Position numbers and translations under genes: made by a program. DNA of 35,452 nt from NCBI RefSeq assembly GCF_003334305.1, contig NZ_QOWS01000033.1, one strand, 5' to 3'. This stretch comes from Escherichia coli (GTDB taxonomy: Bacteria > Pseudomonadota > Gammaproteobacteria > Enterobacterales > Enterobacteriaceae). The notes under the pieces are model-generated. The model searched no databases. It was not told where the DNA came from and saw nothing but the letters and a program-made list of their open reading frames with translations. Of the stretch, positions 4,564 through 11,383 are shown piece after piece (positions within the stretch are counted from its first letter, which is position 1; every line of letters begins with the position of its first letter).

Positions 4564-7500
4564 TAACAACCTGCGTCTGCAGGTCATTCTTAATGCGGTT
4601 GACAAGCTCACCCGCCCATTTCGATCTGCGCAGGCCAGTTCAAGAGAACTGGCTGCTGCTGTCAAAAAATCCCGCGATGCAATAAAGCAGCTTGATCAGG
4701 CCGGGAGCAGTCTGGACAGCTTCCGAAAGCTGCAGGCAGAAAATCAGAAATTAGGCGACAGGCTGAACTATGCCCGCCAGCGTGCAAATTTGCTCAGTCA
4801 GGAACTGGGAGCGATGGGGCCGCCTTCGCAACGTCAGGTTGTTGCTCTGGGCCGTCAACGGCTGGCTGTTCAGCGCCTGGAAGAACGCCAGAAAAAGCTG
4901 CAGCAGCAGACGGCGCTTGTGCGTGCTGAACTGTACCGGGCGGGAATTTCTGCGAAAGACGATGCGGGAGCAACTGCCCGTTTAGCCCGTGAAACATCAC
5001 GTTATAACCAGGAACTTTCGAAACAGGAGGCGCGGCTGAAGCGACTGGGGGAAGCTCAGCGCAGGATGAATGCAGCGCGTGCCAGTTATGCCCGTTCGCT
5101 GGAGGTGCGTGATCGTATTGCAGGTGCCGGAGCCACCACCACGGCTGCAGGGCTGGCAATGGGTGCGCCAGTGATGGCGGCAGTAAAAAGCTATACCAGC
5201 ATGGAAGATGCCATGAAAGGTGTGGCAAAGCAGGTCAATGGTCTGCGTGACGATAATGGCAACCGCACTGCACGTTTTTATGAAATGCAGGATGCCATCA
5301 AGGCTGCCAGCGAACAGTTGCCGATGGAAAACGGTGCGGTGGACTTCGCTGCACTGGTTGAAGGTGGTGCGCGCATGAACGTCGCAAACCCTGACGACAG
5401 CTGGGAAGATCAGAAACGTGACCTGCTGGCCTTCGCCAGTACGGCAGCAAAGGCGGCAACAGCCTTTGAGCTGCCAGCGGATGAACTGTCAGAAAGTCTG
5501 GGGAAAATCGCCCAGCTCTACAAAATCCCCACCCGCAATATTGAACAGCTCGGTGATGCGCTGAACTATCTGGATGATAACGCCATGTCGAAAGGGGCAG
5601 ACATCATTGATGTGATGCAACGTCTGGGCGGTGTGGCTGACCGTCTGGATTATCGTAAAGCGGCGGCGCTGGGTTCCACCTTCCTGACACTGGGCGCTGC
5701 GCCGGAGGTTGCAGCCAGTGCAGCAAACGCGATGGTGCGTGAATTGTCCATTGCCACCATGCAAAGCAAGAGTTTCTTTGAAGGGATGAATCTGCTGAAA
5801 CTCAATCCTGAAGTGATTGAAAAGCAGATGACGAAGGATGCGATGGGAACCATCCAGCGCGTGCTGGAGAAGGTAAACGCGCTGCCGCAGGACAAGCGCC
5901 TGTCTGCCATGACTATGTTGTTTGGTAAAGAGTTTGGCGATGACGCGGCGAAACTGGCAAACAACCTGCCGGAACTGCAGCGTCAGTTAAAACTGACAGC
6001 GGGCAATGATGCGCTTGGCTCCATGCAGAAAGAATCCGACATTAACAAGGATTCACTTTCTGCGCAGTGGTTGCTGGTCAAAACCGGAGCGCAGAACACC
6101 TTCAGCAGCCTGGGCGAAACGCTGCGCCAGCCGCTGATGGATATTCTGTACACGGTGAAAAGCGTCACGGGGGCGTTGCGTCGCTGGGTGGAAGCTAACC
6201 CGGAACTGACAGGCACACTGATGAAAGCATCGGCTGTTGTGGCTGCGGTTACCGTCGGCCTCGGCACCTTAGCGGTGGCGCTGGCTGCAGTGCTGGGGCC
6301 GCTGGCAGTGATCCGTCTGGGATTCTCTGTGTTGGGTATCAAAACGTTATCTTCCGTTACGGCAGCAGTAACTCGAACCAGCAGCGCGTTGTCCTGGCTG
6401 GCTGGCGCACCACTGGCACTGCTGCGACGCGGGCTTGCTTCATCGGGCAACGCCGCAGGTTTACTTACTGCGCCGTTGTCGTCTTTGCGCCGCACGGCAT
6501 CACTGACGGGAAATGTCCTGAAAACTGTAGCAGGTGCGCCGGTTGCACTTTTGCGGTCTGGATTATCCGGTTTACGTGCGGTTGCTGTGATGTTTATGAA
6601 TCCACTGGCAGCACTACGCGGCGGGCTGGCTGCCGCAGGCACGGTGCTGCGAGTACTGGCATCTGGTCCACTGGCGATGTTGCGCGTTGCCCTGTATGCC
6701 GTATCTGGTCTGTTAGGTGCTCTGCTCAGTCCGATAGGTCTTGTGGTTACTGCACTGGCGGGTGTGGCACTGGTTGTCTGGAAATACTGGCAACCCATCA
6801 CCGCATTTCTCGGTGGCGTGGTGGAAGGATTCAAAGCGGCGGCAGGTCCCATCAGTGCAGCGTTCGAACCGCTTAAGCCTGTGTTCCAGTGGATTGGTGA
6901 CAAAGTGCAGGCGCTGTGGGGCTGGTTTACTGATCTGCTGACGCCCGTTAAGTCGACTTCTGCCGAACTGCAGAGCGCAGCGGCAATGGGGCGACGATTC
7001 GGGGAGGCACTGGCGGAAGGGCTGAATATGGTCATGCATCCGCTGGACTCCCTGAAATCCGGCGTTTCCTGGTTGCTGGAGAAGCTCGGCATTATCAGTA
7101 AAGAGGCCGCAAAGGCAAAACTGCCGGAAAGCGTGACGCGTCAGCAACCTGCGACGGTGAATGCAGACGGTAAAGTGATGATGCCATCGGGTGGTTTTCC
7201 GTCATGGGGATATGGCTTTGCGGGGATGTATGACAGCGGCGGCTATATCCCGCGCGGGCAGTTTGGCATCGTCGGTGAAAACGGGCCGGAAATTGTTAAC
7301 GGCCCGGCAAATGTGACCAGCCGGAGAAATACAGCTGCACTGGCTGCCGTTGTTGCCGGAATGATGGGCGTTGCTGCCGCGCCTGCAGAGCTTCCACCGT
7401 TGCACCCTTTGGCACTTCCCGCGAAAGGCGGCGAAGCGATGGTGAGTCGTGCAGCCACTGTGCCGCCCGTTCAACGGATTGAGGCACCGATGCAGATCAT

Positions 7501-7633
7501 CATTCAGACGCAGCCAGGACAAAGTGCGCAGGATATTGCGCGGGAGGTGGCCCGCCAGCTTGATGAACGTGAACGCAGGCTGAAGGCAAAAGCCAGGAGT
7601 AACTACAGCGATCAGGGGGGATACGACGCATGA
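4556..7633 (+). CDS. Tail tape measure protein (P2 T-like)
   Basis: 1025-aa ORF with a coiled-coil-like N-terminal region, central hydrophobic Ala/Leu/Gly repeats and the canonical position after E/E'. Confidence 0.85.
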   Translation: MSDNNLRLQVILNAVDKLTRPFRSAQASSRELAAAVKKSRDAIKQLDQAGSSLDSFRKLQAENQKLGDRLNYARQRANLLSQELGAMGPPSQRQVVALGRQRLAVQRLEERQKKLQQQTALVRAELYRAGISAKDDAGATARLARETSRYNQELSKQEARLKRLGEAQRRMNAARASYARSLEVRDRIAGAGATTTAAGLAMGAPVMAAVKSYTSMEDAMKGVAKQVNGLRDDNGNRTARFYEMQDAIKAASEQLPMENGAVDFAALVEGGARMNVANPDDSWEDQKRDLLAFASTAAKAATAFELPADELSESLGKIAQLYKIPTRNIEQLGDALNYLDDNAMSKGADIIDVMQRLGGVADRLDYRKAAALGSTFLTLGAAPEVAASAANAMVRELSIATMQSKSFFEGMNLLKLNPEVIEKQMTKDAMGTIQRVLEKVNALPQDKRLSAMTMLFGKEFGDDAAKLANNLPELQRQLKLTAGNDALGSMQKESDINKDSLSAQWLLVKTGAQNTFSSLGETLRQPLMDILYTVKSVTGALRRWVEANPELTGTLMKASAVVAAVTVGLGTLAVALAAVLGPLAVIRLGFSVLGIKTLSSVTAAVTRTSSALSWLAGAPLALLRRGLASSGNAAGLLTAPLSSLRRTASLTGNVLKTVAGAPVALLRSGLSGLRAVAVMFMNPLAALRGGLAAAGTVLRVLASGPLAMLRVALYAVSGLLGALLSPIGLVVTALAGVALVVWKYWQPITAFLGGVVEGFKAAAGPISAAFEPLKPVFQWIGDKVQALWGWFTDLLTPVKSTSAELQSAAAMGRRFGEALAEGLNMVMHPLDSLKSGVSWLLEKLGIISKEAAKAKLPESVTRQQPATVNADGKVMMPSGGFPSWGYGFAGMYDSGGYIPRGQFGIVGENGPEIVNGPANVTSRRNTAALAAVVAGMMGVAAAPAELPPLHPLALPAKGGEAMVSRAATVPPVQRIEAPMQIIIQTQPGQSAQDIAREVARQLDERERRLKAKARSNYSDQGGYDA

Positions 7634-8115
7634 TGATGGTGCTGGGATTGTACGTGTTTATGCTGCGCACCGTGCCGTATCAGGAGCTGCAGTATCAACG
7701 CAGCTGGCGACATGCGGCAAACAGCCGGGTAAACCGACGTCCGTCCACGCAGTTTCTGGGACCGGACAACGACATGCTGACGCTTTCCGGTGTTCTTATG
7801 CCGGAGATAACAGGTGGCAGGCTGTCGTTGCTGGCACTGGAGCAGATGGCAGAACAGGGGAAAGCATGGCCCCTGATTGAAGGCAGCGGCACGATTTATG
7901 GCATGTATGTGATTGAGGGACTGAATCAGACTAAAACGGAGTTTTTCCGCGACGGTATGCCGCGCCGGATTGAGTTCACCCTGTCGCTCAAACGGGTGGA
8001 TGAATCCCTGTCCGATATGTTCGGTGATCTCAGTGCGCAACTGAATAATCTGCAGGAAACGGCAACGTCTGCCTTAAGCGATATCAGTAAAACGGTGGGA
8101 GGGCTGCTGTCGTGA
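7630..8115 (+). CDS. Tail protein U-like
   Basis: 161-aa ORF whose start overlaps the tape-measure stop; position matches P2 gene U. Confidence 0.75.
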   Translation: MMMVLGLYVFMLRTVPYQELQYQRSWRHAANSRVNRRPSTQFLGPDNDMLTLSGVLMPEITGGRLSLLALEQMAEQGKAWPLIEGSGTIYGMYVIEGLNQTKTEFFRDGMPRRIEFTLSLKRVDESLSDMFGDLSAQLNNLQETATSALSDISKTVGGLLS

Positions 8116-9212
8116 ATTTCAGCTCTGAACTGCTTAACAAAAGCAACAAAACTCCGGCATTCAGCATCAGTATTGAGGGCAGGGATATCACTACTGTGCT
8201 GGATAACCGCCTGATGAGTCTGACTCTGACGGACAATCGGGGCTTTGAAGCAGACCAGCTTGATCTGGAGCTGGACGATGCCGACGGGAAAATCGTGCTG
8301 CCGCGCCGTGGTGCGGTCATTACGCTGGCGCTGGGCTGGAAGGGGCAGCCGCTTTTCCCGAAAGGGGCATTCACGGTGGACGAGATTGAACACACTGGCG
8401 CACCGGACCGCCTGACTATCCGGGCGCGAAGTGCTGATTTTCGGGAAACGCTGAATACCCGCCGTGAAAAATCGTGGCACAAGACCACCATTGGGGAAGT
8501 GGTGAAGGAGATAGCCGCGCGGCACAAGCTGAAGATGGTACTGGGTAAAGACCTGTCGGATAAGCTCGTGGAGCATATAGACCAGACTAATGAGAGTGAC
8601 GGTAGTTTTCTGATGCGGCTGGCGCGCCAGTACGGTGCTATTGCGTCGGTGAAAAATGGCAATCTGTTATTCATCCGGCAGGGACAGGGCAAAAGTGCCA
8701 GCGGTAAACCACTGCCGGTGATCACTATCACACGTAAGGACGGCGACAGTCACCGCTTTACCCTGGCAGATCGCGGAGCCTATACGGGCATAATTGCCAG
8801 CTGGTTGCATACCCGCGAACCCGCGAAGAAAGAAAGCACCACGGTGAAGCGTAAGCGCAGGACTAAGAAGCAGAAGAAAGAGCCGGAAGCGAAGCAGGGC
8901 GATTACCTGGTGGGTACGGATGAAAACGTGCTGGTACTTAATCGCACTTATGCCAACCGGAGCAACGCTGAACGGGCAGCGAAAATGCAGTGGGAACGCC
9001 TGCAACGCGGCGTTGCGTCATTCTCGCTACAACTGGCGGAAGGGCGGGCAGATCTCTACACGGAAATGCCAGTGAAAGTCAGTGGCTTTAAACAGCCGAT
9101 AGATGATGCGGAATGGACCATTACGACTCTGACACATACCGTCAGCCCGGATAATGGTTTTACGACCAGTCTTGAGCTTGAAGTGAAGGTTGATGATCTC
9201 GAAATGGAATGA
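8112..9212 (+). CDS. Tail protein D-like (late tail gene)
   Basis: 366-aa ORF with a GTG start overlapping the U stop; position matches P2 gene D. Confidence 0.75.
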   Translation: MNFSSELLNKSNKTPAFSISIEGRDITTVLDNRLMSLTLTDNRGFEADQLDLELDDADGKIVLPRRGAVITLALGWKGQPLFPKGAFTVDEIEHTGAPDRLTIRARSADFRETLNTRREKSWHKTTIGEVVKEIAARHKLKMVLGKDLSDKLVEHIDQTNESDGSFLMRLARQYGAIASVKNGNLLFIRQGQGKSASGKPLPVITITRKDGDSHRFTLADRGAYTGIIASWLHTREPAKKESTTVKRKRRTKKQKKEPEAKQGDYLVGTDENVLVLNRTYANRSNAERAAKMQWERLQRGVASFSLQLAEGRADLYTEMPVKVSGFKQPIDDAEWTITTLTHTVSPDNGFTTSLELEVKVDDLEME

Positions 9213-9302
9213 TTCTTCACAATGGAGAACTTTTAAGTTTGAAAAATGGAATAATGCGATATCATTATTGTGAATTTAGCAAAAATGGGGAGAACTCGAA
9301 AA

Positions 9303-9521
9303 ATGATGATTTGCCCACTGTGTGGAAGTGCCGCCCATACTCGCAGCAGTTTTCAGGTATCTTCATTGACCAAAGAGCGTTACAACCAGTGCCAGAACAT
9401 TAACTGCAGCCATACTTTTGTTACCCATGAAACTTTTGTTCGTTCGATTGCAACGCCAAAAGAGTCAAATCCGGTTCAGCCGCATCCTCATAAATTTAAA
9501 CAGGTGGGTTTGCCGATTTAA
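9303..9521 (+). CDS. ogr: Ogr/Delta-type zinc-finger late transcription activator
   Basis: CPLCGSAAHTRSS...YNQCQNINCSHTF is a C4 zinc-finger pattern like P2 Ogr; start placed at the Met preceding CPLC, with a GGGAGA Shine-Dalgarno upstream. Confidence 0.75.
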   Translation: MMICPLCGSAAHTRSSFQVSSLTKERYNQCQNINCSHTFVTHETFVRSIATPKESNPVQPHPHKFKQVGLPI

Positions 9522-9585
9522 ATGGCGACATAACTACATGATTTAAAACTATACTTTTCTATAAGTTGAGGTTAAATTAACAATG

Positions 9586-9762
9586 CCTGACGTTAGCGGG
9601 GATTTATCCCCACTCCGTAGATATGTAGTTTGTCGCTTTGCGACTGCGGACCGATTACCTGATTGCCATGTAATCGGACGCCGACTTGTTAAGCTTTCTG
9701 GGCTAACTGGTTGTTATTTTTTATTTAGTTAGGGCCATGCGCTTGCGCTAAGAGACGTCAGG
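9586..9762 (+). ncRNA. Candidate structured non-coding RNA upstream of the reverse transcriptase (retron msr/msd-like or DRT-type ncRNA)
   Basis: Long-range inverted repeat CCTGACGTTAGCG (9586-9598) with CGCTA-AGAG-ACGTCAGG (9746-9762) enclosing hairpins at 9598-9611, 9632-9644 and 9651-9677; no convincing ORF inside. Confidence 0.4.
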
Positions 9763-9782
9763 TATCTATGGAGGAACAAGTT

Positions 9783-9956
9783 ATGGATACAAACGAACTT
9801 GGCTTAGTTAAGGCGCGTGTTGAACTGATCACCGCTATGCTCAAATGCGCAACCGCGTTTGTTGGCTTAGTTGGTGCGGTTTACGCCGTTCTTAACATGG
9901 CCTTCAACTACAACAATTTAACTCATGACAATAGAAGTTCAAAGGTGGGAAGATAA
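9783..9956 (+). CDS. Small hypothetical protein with one hydrophobic helix (possible small effector, or frameshifted RT N-terminus)
   Basis: Only open frame across 9768-9956; GGAGGA Shine-Dalgarno about 7 nt before the ATG at 9783; hydrophobic stretch AFVGLVGAVYAVLNMAF; overlaps the RT start by about 30 nt in another frame. Confidence 0.3.
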   Translation: MDTNELGLVKARVELITAMLKCATAFVGLVGAVYAVLNMAFNYNNLTHDNRSSKVGR

Positions 9957-10698
9957 ATTTGAGATTAAGCCCGGGGTTTGGGTTTATGTCCCAAGCGTTG
10001 AGGCACGTAAAGTCGGAGGGAAGATACTTCAGGCTGTCAGAAACAAGTGGATTCCGCCACTCTATTTTTACCATCTAAGAACTGGTGGGCATCTTAAAGC
10101 TGCCAGATTACACTTAAAAAGTGATTTTTTTGCCGTTGTTGATATTAAACAATTTTTTCAGTCAACGAGCCGTAGTCGTATCACCCGTGATCTAAAGAGC
10201 TACTTCACCTATTCTCAAGCGCGGGAAATCTCAACATTTTCAACTGTAAGAAACTTGTCCCATAGTCCACATAAGCATGTCCTCCCTTTTGGTTTTGTTC
10301 AATCTCCAATACTTGCAACCCTCTGCTTAGATAAAAGTTATTTTGGTAGCTTACTACGCCGATTGAACAAACATCATGATCTCAAGCTAAGTGTGTTTAT
10401 GGATGATGTGATCATCTCGTCAAACGATTTGGCCCAATTACAAGCGGCTTACGACGAAGCACTAGTGGCAATGCGTAAATCTGGTTATCAAGCCAACATG
10501 AGTAAAACTCAGGCACCATCGTCAAAGATTAGCGTGTTTAATTTAACTTTGAGTAAGGGAGTTATGAAAGTCACATCTCAGAAAATGAGTGACTTCCTGA
10601 TTGATTTCTATTCAAGCAATTATGAGCCGCACAGAATAGGGGTCAAAAACTACGTCGAAGCTGTTAATCCAGGGCAAGCGAAACTCTTTAAGTTGTAA
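9925..10698 (+). CDS. Compact reverse transcriptase (retron/Abi/DRT-like RT domain)
   Basis: RT motifs readable in the translation: fingers FEIKPGVWVYVPS, motif A VVDIKQFFQS, motif B LPFGFVQSPILATLCL, catalytic YxDD box FMDD; AT-rich with rare codons (AGA, ATA, CTA). Confidence 0.75.
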   Translation: MTIEVQRWEDKFEIKPGVWVYVPSVEARKVGGKILQAVRNKWIPPLYFYHLRTGGHLKAARLHLKSDFFAVVDIKQFFQSTSRSRITRDLKSYFTYSQAREISTFSTVRNLSHSPHKHVLPFGFVQSPILATLCLDKSYFGSLLRRLNKHHDLKLSVFMDDVIISSNDLAQLQAAYDEALVAMRKSGYQANMSKTQAPSSKISVFNLTLSKGVMKVTSQKMSDFLIDFYSSNYEPHRIGVKNYVEAVNPGQAKLFKL

Positions 10699-10806
10699 TT
10701 GCGATCGCATGTAGTAGCAACTGGGCTTGACTGAATGTCTGCCGCCATTTTGCCGCCACTACTAAAGAAAAAAGGGCTACGCTTTCACGTAACCCCTTGA
10801 TTTATT

Positions 10807-11169
10807 TGGTGGAGCTGGCGGGAGTTGAACCCGCGTCCGAAATTCCTACATCCTCGGTACTACATGCTTAGTCAGTCTTTACATTCGCTTGCCAGCTGCG
10901 GACGGACACGCCACTAACAAACTAGCCTGATTAAGTTTTAACGCTTCAACCCCAGGCAGGGCTTCCACGCGATCTCTTTTGGGTTTGACCTCTCTTGATC
11001 CCCGTCCTAAGAGCGGAGGCTAGGGAGAGAGGGCTCTAAGCAGGTTATTAAGCTGCTAAAGCGTAGTTTTCGTCGTTTGCGACTATTTTTTGCGGCTTTT
11101 TACGAGGCCAACCGCCCCTCGGCATGCACCTTGGGTTTCGCAAATCCCGTCGAATCCAGAATCAGCCCC
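10807..11169 (-). ncRNA. ssrA: tmRNA (SsrA)
   Basis: Reverse complement matches E. coli tmRNA from GGGGCTGATTCTGG (5' end at 11169) to GCTCCACCA (3' end at 10807), including the tag-coding region. Confidence 0.95.
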
Positions 11170-11383
11170 AATGTGTAAAGGTAAGTATACCAGATTTATG
11201 AGCGCCATGACCAGCCTCAATGGCGTTATCGTTAAAGATTTAGCACCCATGTAGCCTGATTTTTATTCGATTAAGCAATGGGATGGCAACATTTGTGTCG
11301 GATGTGATAGCCAATAAGATGTTCATTCGCGCCGCCGGAGAGGGAGGCGCGGTGAGGAACTGGTCAATAATTGGAGTGCAGGT

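Follow-up and report, generated by a model that had tools for sequence, protein, structure and literature searches.

The right end of a P2-like prophage in Escherichia coli carries a compact module in which a structured noncoding RNA (ncRNA), a gene for a small protein (SP) with a hydrophobic helix, and a gene for a reverse transcriptase (RT) follow one another on the plus strand. The module lies in a 35,452-nt stretch of DNA (contig NZ_QOWS01000033.1 of assembly GCF_003334305.1), referred to here as the window, and occupies the 1.28-kb interval between ogr and ssrA. The 3' end of ssrA is the attachment (att) site of the prophage. A preliminary description of the window, made from the letters alone, had proposed an island of RT, ncRNA, and small open reading frame (ORF) in this interval, and all of these parts are at that place. 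The module would work like a Type VI retron, yet it fails the tests for Type VI (RT clade, helix-turn-helix (HTH) gene, and SP) and lacks the VTG motif. It is therefore classed here, on model scores, motifs, and gene content, as a retron-like system outside the 13 described types. By analogy with Type VI retrons, we lean slightly towards the view that the module is a two-gene retron-like prophage cargo and a toxin switch that would be locked by RNA and opened by reverse transcription, aborting infection.

The RT gene (9925–10698, plus strand) overlaps the SP gene by 32 nt, has no Shine-Dalgarno (SD) sequence of its own, and encodes a compact protein of 257 aa that matches Pfam RVT_1 at 2.4e-21. 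The motifs named in the preliminary description are located at residues 71–80 (motif A, VVDIKQFFQS), 120–135 (motif B, LPFGFVQSPILATLCL), and 158–161 (the catalytic box, FMDD). Residues D73, D160, and D161 are invariant across the RT family, in which the catalytic box is mostly YMDD and is FMDD in the window. An exhaustive profile search of 1.84 billion representatives identified 291 RT clusters, defined at 50% identity, at E <= 1e-30. Nearly all of the top 150 clusters were 245–280 aa long and matched end to end, with no additional enzymatic domain. A word-indexed search found 72 RT clusters, nearly all of 244–270 aa, and a scan of one genome per species found 101 loci, which belong to gamma-, beta-, and alpha-proteobacteria plus a small number of other groups. 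The best 80 of these 101 loci, whose RT ORFs are typically 244–290 aa, were used for the locus analyses. The uniform full length, the end-to-end matches, and the invariant catalytic residues show that the window has a complete RT gene and not a fragment or a pseudogene. Truncation, which would have spoken against the initial interpretation, is thus not seen across the ~290 clusters.

By sequence and by fold, the nearest solved relatives of the RT family are retron RTs. When a profile of the family was compared with PDB sequences, the best matches were all retron RTs: Kva2 (3.5e-13), Ec86 (7e-12, with family residues 11–248 aligned on 60–296), and then Eco8, Ec78, Ec67, and Ec83. Group II intron, Cas-associated, and viral RTs matched at 1e-4 or worse in the same search. 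Further evidence comes from an AlphaFold model of the RT (pLDDT 96.4), whose top 16 Foldseek matches in PDB were retron RTs with template modeling (TM) scores of 0.65–0.76, followed by G2L4, group II, DRT9, and diversity-generating retroelement (DGR) RTs. Region X of retron RTs (NAxxH) is kept in part: the invariant H63 aligns with the histidine of NNATPH in Ec86 and A59 is nearly invariant, but the asparagine is not conserved. The window RT is shorter than Ec86 at both ends, by ~60 residues. The sequence and the fold of the RT thus agree with the preliminary description in pointing to a retron or defense type of module in an accessory position of the prophage, with a function that is predicted from sequence.

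As judged by model scores and motifs, the RT family fits none of the 13 described retron types. The window RT scored 63 bits on the PADLOC model RT_VI, 59 bits on the generic Cas RT model, and 52–55 bits on RT_I-B. Six other RTs of the family scored 42–68 bits, and their best model varied (II-A, I-B, or Cas RT). A Vpa2-like Type VI retron, recovered through its published SP sequence, served as a calibration. Its RT reached 338 bits on RT_VI and 100–138 bits on the other retron-type models, its HTH protein reached 107.6 bits on HTH_VI, and its RT retains both NAxxH and VTG. Five relatives of the window RT, on the other hand, scored 42–52 bits on RT_VI. An hhalign comparison of the family profile with a Type VI RT gave 19% identity at E = 3e-8, no better than with Ec86. 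The window RT fits none of the PADLOC retron, DRT, and Abi models, and all NCBIfam retron, DRT, and group II models were well under their cut-offs (17.6 bits versus a cut-off of 200 for Drt3a; 23 bits versus 300 for the group II model TIGR04416). The UG, Abi, and DRT models were weak (UG models 24–38 bits, including 33 for UG33 and 38 for UG17; Drt8 25 bits), and there was no significant match to Drt2. In these searches, of a kind that the preliminary description had called for, the RT does not group with group II intron RTs, an outcome that would have spoken against the initial interpretation. As that description had suggested, the RT probably belongs to an uncharacterized minimal lineage: the protein is full length and is recognized by RVT_1, and no retron, Abi, or UG-DRT type model fits it well.

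Upstream of the SP and RT genes, the predicted layout of the ncRNA is that of a retron msr/msd RNA. The noncoding stretch folds at -75.3 kcal/mol (z = -4.64), a value equaled by 0 of 200 shuffles, and the structured region that had been proposed there is thus supported. The ncRNA was aligned over 26 gamma- and beta-proteobacterial loci, with covariation and invariance figures taken from 25 sequences, and was studied using block hidden Markov models (HMMs), RNAalifold, and duplex-energy permutation tests. It extends over ~180 nt (9584–9764, plus strand, as are all the elements within it), from a 5' inverted repeat a1 (TGCCTGACGT, 9584–9593) to a 3' inverted repeat a2 (ACGTCAGGTA, 9755–9764), which pair to form helix P1. 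Directly 3' of a1 is a conserved UAG(G/C) (9594–9597), whose A12 and G13 are invariant in the 25 sequences. G9596 is a candidate branching (priming) residue, as its position appears analogous to that of the priming G of a retron msr. It is followed by an msr-like hairpin 1 (GGGGAUUUAUCCCC, 9598–9611), which is present at the same place in relatives with a different sequence in each, and by a C/U-rich anti-SD strand (9612–9623), which pairs with the SD region of SP and forms the 5' strand of helix P2. Next is a conserved hairpin 2 (GUCGC-UUU-GCGAC, 9632–9644), which reads GUCAC-UAU-GUGAU in most relatives, with one pair varying between AU (21 sequences) and GC (4 sequences). The central, msd-like stem-loops (9651–9713) are variable. 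This region measures 34–101 nt among relatives, and neither its sequence nor its length is conserved, yet one or two stem-loops are present in 25/25 relatives. The 3' portion contains a conserved 3' block (9724–9740), which forms the 5' strand of helix P3 and would be the first stretch to be reverse-transcribed under the model, and a near-invariant GCGC-loop-GCGC hairpin (9739–9748) recognized by the alignment and RNAalifold. The SD region of SP (9762–9774, with GGAGG at 9770–9774) forms the 3' strand of P2 and has 3 nt in common with a2.

Evidence for P1 comes from compensatory changes in 7 of its 8 pairs. In the alignment, 92% of cells were paired compared to 25–42% in slid controls, and 0 of 500 shuffles reached the observed covariation score. 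RNAalifold, unaided, recovered a1/a2, hairpin 2, and the GCGC hairpin. In 44 of 47 gamma- and beta-proteobacterial loci, the block HMMs gave a single match to the 3' block, located 84–225 nt 5' of the RT gene and on its strand. Sequence HMMs of the ncRNA blocks miss the alpha-proteobacterial members; when aligned separately, the RNAs of these members display the same layout and the same a1/a2 and G design in a different sequence. The block HMMs found none of the conserved blocks in Vpa2 loci. A search of Rfam at E <= 10 over 9200–11300 returned the transfer-messenger RNA (tmRNA) only, and no retron msr, intron, or other RNA family.

Two long-range helices connect the ncRNA to the SP gene. P2, which joins the anti-SD strand to the SD region, comprises 8–13 contiguous bp in all 25 loci. 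The mean duplex energy was -15.0 kcal/mol for cognate pairs versus -9.9 kcal/mol for non-cognate pairs, and 0 of 20000 permutations reached the cognate mean. The flanks of P2 covary as well, for example CUCCGUAG/CUAUGGAG, UCCUCAUCA/UGAUGAGGA, and CCUUAUCAA/UUGAUAAGG. Several relatives (L006, L009, L012, L017, and L020) have a second CCUC-like motif within the presumed template, immediately 5' of the GUUGGUU block. This motif, absent from the window RNA, repeats the core of the anti-SD directly, and its complementary DNA (cDNA) would mimic an SD.

P3 joins the 3' block to the coding sequence of SP. Its target in the SP ORF (ACAUGGCCUUCAACUA, 9895–9910, plus strand) lies 14 nt 5' of the RT start codon; the block is complementary to the SP codons (N)-M-A-F-N-Y, 10–30 nt 5' of the RT start. 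The cognate energy was -21.2 kcal/mol versus -17.3 kcal/mol for non-cognate pairs (0 of 20000 permutations), and P3 is a part of the minimum-energy fold of 9583–9960. P3 also covaries in the alpha-proteobacterial subgroups (p = 0.001). There, the SPs carry KVVNY, EVTNY, or GATNY, and the RNA block shifts to match (GUCGUCAACUA/UAGUUGACGAC, GUCACCAACUA/UGGUUGGUGAU, and GCCACUAACUA/UAGUUAGUGGU); in one of these subgroups the RT ATG is inside the P3 target. No co-variation was found between the ncRNA and the 5' part of the SP ORF (p = 0.94). P1, P2, and P3 are mutually crossing, and all three covary. Relative to the end of a2, the start of the 3' strand of P2 varies from -5 to +5 nt (median 3); the energies of P1 and P2 are similar. 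P1 and P2 occupy adjacent or overlapping nucleotides and therefore can never both be complete. Because the linker is too short for a pseudoknot helix of 7–11 bp, the two helices are best read as alternatives.

The SP gene (9783–9956, plus strand; RefSeq WP_000380485.1) encodes 57 aa that are predicted to form a single long hydrophobic helix, with an invariant Asn42-Tyr43. The small hydrophobic ORF of the preliminary description does exist, but its start is likely the ATG at 9783 and not 9768, because GGAGG is located at 9770–9774 and RefSeq calls the same 57-aa protein. An SP-type ORF (39–65 aa) ending within the first 4–74 nt of the RT gene is present in at least 52 of the 80 loci. Members of the SP family have in common a basic N-terminus (typically MKK), a hydrophobic helix, and the invariant Asn-Tyr. 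AlphaFold predicts a helix over residues 3–52, with pLDDT >90 for residues 11–40. The hydrophobicity maximum is at least 1.6 in 29 of 46 members, and most reach a transmembrane-like level. Searches of PADLOC, NCBIfam, PHROGs, and precomputed Pfam returned no match to SP, and a profile search gave 67 clusters, all annotated as hypothetical. In an all-against-all comparison of flanking ORFs in the 80 loci, SP was the only conserved neighbor and no HTH gene was found. SP would thus be the effector, a third component beside the RT and the ncRNA. A shared FN[YF] had raised the candidate that SP is homologous to the SP of Vpa2; it was rejected at an hhalign probability of 0.1%.

SP and RT are closely linked. 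The RT start has no SD in 39 of 52 loci and overlaps the SP ORF in every case, which suggests translational coupling. Furthermore, two independent natural in-frame SP-RT fusions were found. In the Klebsiella fusion (302 aa; L088 6001–6909), an SP ending in ...NIVPNY runs into the RT; this form occurs in 7802 index blocks, with the complete ncRNA and the SD lock retained upstream. The Serratia proteamaculans fusion (309 aa; P0019) has the same build with a different SP.

How might the module work? In the model that we lean towards, one transcript starting at ~9584 would carry the msr/msd-type RNA, then the SP gene, and then the RT gene. At rest, P2 would hide the SD of SP, and P3 would tie up the first-copied template together with the SP/RT junction, leaving SP untranslated. 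RT would also be low, having no SD of its own and overlapping SP. Engagement of the RNA by the RT would allow a1:a2 to form at the expense of P2. Synthesis of cDNA would be primed from the 2'-OH of G9596, and copying from 9754 to ~9724 would displace or destroy P2 and P3, so that SP could be translated. SP, as a hydrophobic single helix, would then damage the membrane, and the cell would be killed or arrested and the phage infection aborted. Translation of the RT, being coupled to that of SP, would create positive feedback. As for the trigger, analogy with Type VI suggests that the cDNA could be stabilized when phage recombination proteins or RecBCD inhibitors appear.

Several points weigh against this model. 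Defense, the toxicity of SP, the synthesis of cDNA, and the ends of the transcript are predictions of the model. If the RT depends on SP translation, a strict off state leaves no RT, and a leak must therefore be assumed. A sigma-70 consensus scan of the plus strand of the window found no good promoter. The putative module promoter, a weak -10-like hexamer TAAATT (9573–9578, plus strand, 5 nt 5' of a1), is placed from relatives only: a TA...T element is found at this position in 26 aligned relatives, several of which have a full TTGAC-17-TATAAT promoter. Every retron-type model gives the RT family 40–68 bits with no steady best type, and the position of the retron VTG (RT7) reads VFN, with F205 and N206 invariant in 96 sequences. 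The locus has no antitoxin-like HTH, and no ORF separates SP and RT. A profile of 46 SPs has no detectable homology to the Type VI SPs of Vpa2 and Sen3 (hhalign 0.1%), a comparison outside of which lie the SPs of clusters 2760, 3272, and 3897. P2 is not demonstrable in the alpha-proteobacterial members (p = 0.21). The Klebsiella fusion variant is adjoined by umuDC-like and SRAP genes and by no recognizable defense island. Lastly, an SP fused to the RT suits a subunit or a membrane anchor as well as it suits a toxin.

This last point leads to an alternative that we consider unlikely, in which SP would serve the RT as a structural subunit or as its anchor in the membrane, the helices would only autoregulate SP-RT synthesis, and the action would be exerted through cDNA or through an effector encoded elsewhere. 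The existence of fusions and the absence of an antitoxin gene are in keeping with it. The two fusions are independent, with a Klebsiella form that is very widespread. The obligate overlap of the genes suggests that SP and RT are made at a constant ratio, and in fused forms the SD lock governs the RT itself. Since the RT is shorter than Ec86 at both ends, a partner helix could also complete it. However, PADLOC holds single-gene RT-Toprim, RT-TIR, and RT-protease retron models, so fusion is no argument against an effector. A tight translational lock on a small hydrophobic single-helix peptide is typical of toxins, and there is no other conserved gene to serve as the effector. The toxin-like peptide, together with long-range helices that sequester an SD, resembles the logic of hok mRNA, and prophages carry the module at their extreme end. 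One could propose that it mainly serves to maintain the prophage, as an addiction module of the type I toxin-antitoxin (hok) kind in which the RT modulates the lock and defense is at most a side effect. We regard this as improbable: no separate antisense RNA gene is evident, the family is also found outside of prophages, and the RT active site, which a simple addiction module does not need, is intact across ~290 clusters.

Could the module have come from a Type VI retron by loss of the HTH gene, as a degenerate or streamlined form? Apart from the HTH, it has the order ncRNA-SP-(HTH)-RT, and ~22% of Type VI entries have no HTH either; among the PADLOC models, RT_VI gives the window RT its best match, and the RNA logic is similar. 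We nevertheless find this very improbable. The RT_VI score of 63 bits compares with 338 for a Type VI RT, and other members of the family score best on II-A, I-B, or Cas RT. The identity to the Type VI RT (19%, E = 3e-8) is no closer than that to Ec86, and VFN replaces the VTG that the Type VI RT keeps along with NAxxH. The SP profile is unmatched to the SPs of Vpa2 and Sen3, and the ncRNA blocks are not in Vpa2 loci. The HTH is absent in all 80 loci and not in the window alone, and six accession numbers of the family are not in the published tree file of Type VI/IV/V RTs. A remnant or part of a non-defense retroelement (a group II intron, a DGR, or a CRISPR-associated RT) is already largely refuted, and we give it almost no credence. 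It could draw on the weak generic RT matches (59 bits for Cas-associated RT and 23 bits for TIGR04416) and on group II RT folds whose TM scores are near those of retron RTs. But the tmRNA was the only Rfam family in 9200–11300, with no intron family; 7000–11300 contains no direct repeat of >=25 nt that could represent template and variable repeats; there is no maturase or endonuclease domain and no cas gene nearby; and the members, which have a conserved ncRNA and SP of their own, are uniformly ~255 aa.

The closest working parallel to the module is found in Type VI retrons (Vpa2, Eco12, and Sen3). In Retron-Vpa2, a 'hybrid RNA' joins msr-msd to a translationally repressed small hydrophobic toxin, and phage-induced multicopy single-stranded DNA (msDNA) is needed for derepression (bioRxiv 10.1101/2025.10.22.683967). 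In Retron-Sen3, the basal stem hides the ribosome-binding site of SP, and the ncRNA is tied to the SP coding sequence by a long-range pairing that is conserved (bioRxiv 10.64898/2026.04.27.721009). Like the module, Type VI retrons have a structured msr/msd-type RNA followed by a gene for a small hydrophobic helical protein and then the RT, an SP ORF inside the structured transcript with a hidden ribosome-binding site and long-range ncRNA-SP pairing, and carriage on mobile elements. This likeness of the RNA lock is a matter of shared working and is no evidence of membership. Type VI retrons have a Cro/C1-type HTH (cluster 2_1) by the RT, whereas none is present in the 80 loci here. The two also differ in the RT_VI score, in VTG versus VFN, in SPs with no detectable homology, and in unrelated ncRNA blocks. 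Unlike in Type VI, SP and RT overlap and are sometimes fused in the module, and its lock helix pairs the template with SP codons near the RT start. Identity with Retron-Eco12 is unlikely because the described Type VI operon includes the HTH. In two independent assemblies with the Vpa2-like Type VI retron of Vibrio parahaemolyticus (L082 3523–3545 and L083), the RT frame is interrupted by an in-frame stop seven codons past its apparent start (MAKRIH, stop, KTPH...), which could reflect recoding, a start further downstream, or a mutation common to both.

Canonical retrons such as Ec86 (Retron-Eco1, II-A) provide the nearest RT relatives by sequence and structure, keep the region X histidine, and share with the module the a1/a2 repeats, the conserved G after a1, the msr hairpins, and a non-conserved msd stem-loop. 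Compared to Ec86, the module has an RT shorter by ~60 residues, VFN for VTG, a partial NAxxH, and a short msd stem-loop. It also has no separate enzymatic effector, and its RNA is fused to the effector mRNA, whereas in the canonical model an msDNA-RT complex restrains a protein toxin. Type IV retrons (Eco6/Ec48) likewise have a membrane-type effector adjoining or overlapping the RT gene, but that effector is a much larger protein with two transmembrane helices and is encoded 3' of the RT, and RT_IV ranks below the better models for the family here. In type I toxin-antitoxin systems such as hok/sok, a small hydrophobic peptide is encoded by an mRNA made untranslatable through base-pairing over its ribosome-binding site. 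The lock here differs in acting in cis on the same transcript and in having a co-encoded RT, and no trans antisense RNA was found. DRT2, UG, and Abi RTs with an ncRNA also combine an RT with an upstream structured template RNA; the template here is short and variable, so not repeat-generating.

The preliminary description had mentioned an RT reported in a variable locus of P2-like prophages. Such an RT does exist, but it is a different and much larger one: Orf570 of P2-EC30 (Odegrip 2006), an accessory RT of the Abi-P2 type in a P2-like prophage, which is reported to inhibit T5. Orf570 (~570 aa, by its name) is reported as a single protein and has no known ncRNA partner, whereas the module has an RT of 257 aa, an ogr-att position, an ncRNA, and an SP. 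A literature search, outside of which subscription-only literature lay, found no paper on this RT family. PADLOC-DB 2.0 (2023), NCBIfam 20 (2026), Rfam 15, and PHROGs contain no specific model for the RT, the SP, or the RNA.

In the window, the module is preceded by the late-control gene D (8112–9212), a P2-type gene 5' of ogr, and by ogr itself (9303–9521, plus strand), a late transcription activator identified by NCBIfam NF007241 (1.5e-25) and by the RefSeq annotation of an identical locus. ogr is the last P2-type gene before the cargo. On the other side is ssrA (10807–11169, minus strand), which encodes tmRNA and was identified by ARAGORN and Rfam (295.8 bits), with smpB beyond. The RT gene and ssrA converge on a G+C-rich hairpin between A-runs and T-runs (10771–10798), detected on the minus strand as the ssrA terminator. 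With its symmetric A/T flanks, this hairpin is probably the terminator of the module as well. The preliminary description had placed the module in a variable locus, but its position is not an established hotspot. Among 1153 E. coli genomes with a match, similarity to the window ends within the 3' end of ogr in most of those with a closely related ogr, and the two examined E. coli P2-like prophages beside ybjL (L085 and L086) have their att site immediately 3' of ogr, with no cargo. The ogr-att junction thus appears from these sequences to be usually empty, and the module is best regarded as an insertion at the prophage end, since the att site abuts ogr in related prophages.

The locus is present in identical or near-identical form in 28 of 5426 complete E. 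coli genomes. RTs that are at least 90% identical are found in many K. pneumoniae (963 and 318 contigs, in two variants) and also in S. Typhi CT18. The module is present in all S. Typhi tested (as STY2879), in thousands of K. pneumoniae assemblies, and in some E. coli. Prophages of E. coli, Klebsiella, and Serratia have it at their ends: the gene is at the extreme end in 13 Klebsiella prophage records, and in Serratia a homologous SP-RT pair ends another P2/HP1-like prophage, adjoining ybjL. Integrases recur near the RT in ~10 of the 80 loci. A defense-island setting of the Klebsiella copy was considered and rejected, as the RT nearby is of the group II intron type and the remaining neighbors have no PADLOC match. 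That RT, of 494 aa (L087 2078–3559), stands beside umuDC-like genes, 2.4 kb from the retron-like RT, and scored 235 bits on the PADLOC generic RT model along with matches to homing-endonuclease models; two unrelated RTs are thus found in one island.

The S. Typhi orthologue STY2879 is named in the literature only as a diagnostic target, with its function stated to be unexplored. STY2879 primers for loop-mediated isothermal amplification (LAMP) and PCR have been published as specific to S. Typhi (PMC4409374). Seven of them match the E. coli RT gene of the window with 0 mismatches and the eighth with 1. Their sites (9925–9945, 10244–10285, 10308–10330, 10352–10374, 10392–10433, and 10678–10698) are all within the RT gene. 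As the primers match the E. coli gene and the gene is common in K. pneumoniae, STY2879 is not Typhi-specific, and the primers could cross-react.

A broader and more tentative proposal, which we hold to be possible but rather less than probable, is that the module represents an undescribed class of retron-like immune switch. In such a switch, the template would act as an antisense strand to the mRNA that encodes the effector and the RT, through P3, which covers the invariant Asn-Tyr codons and the RT start, and would also hide the SD (P2), so that copying of the first few dozen nt would irreversibly unlock translation of both a membrane toxin and more RT. This would amount to self-amplifying, two-gene, antitoxin-free abortive infection, with the module fixed in S. 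Typhi and widespread in K. pneumoniae. If true, defense finders and the 13-type retron classification miss a proteobacterial lineage of ~290 clusters (50% identity) that includes major pathogens. With an RT of 255 aa, an RNA of ~180 nt, and a peptide of ~50 aa, the module would be smaller than any known retron-like system, and it would offer a simple setting for the idea, drawn from Type VI, that reverse transcription turns on toxin translation. The covarying P1, P2, and P3 make the switch idea directly testable, and a compact RT with a defined RNA partner may be of interest for retron-based genome editing.

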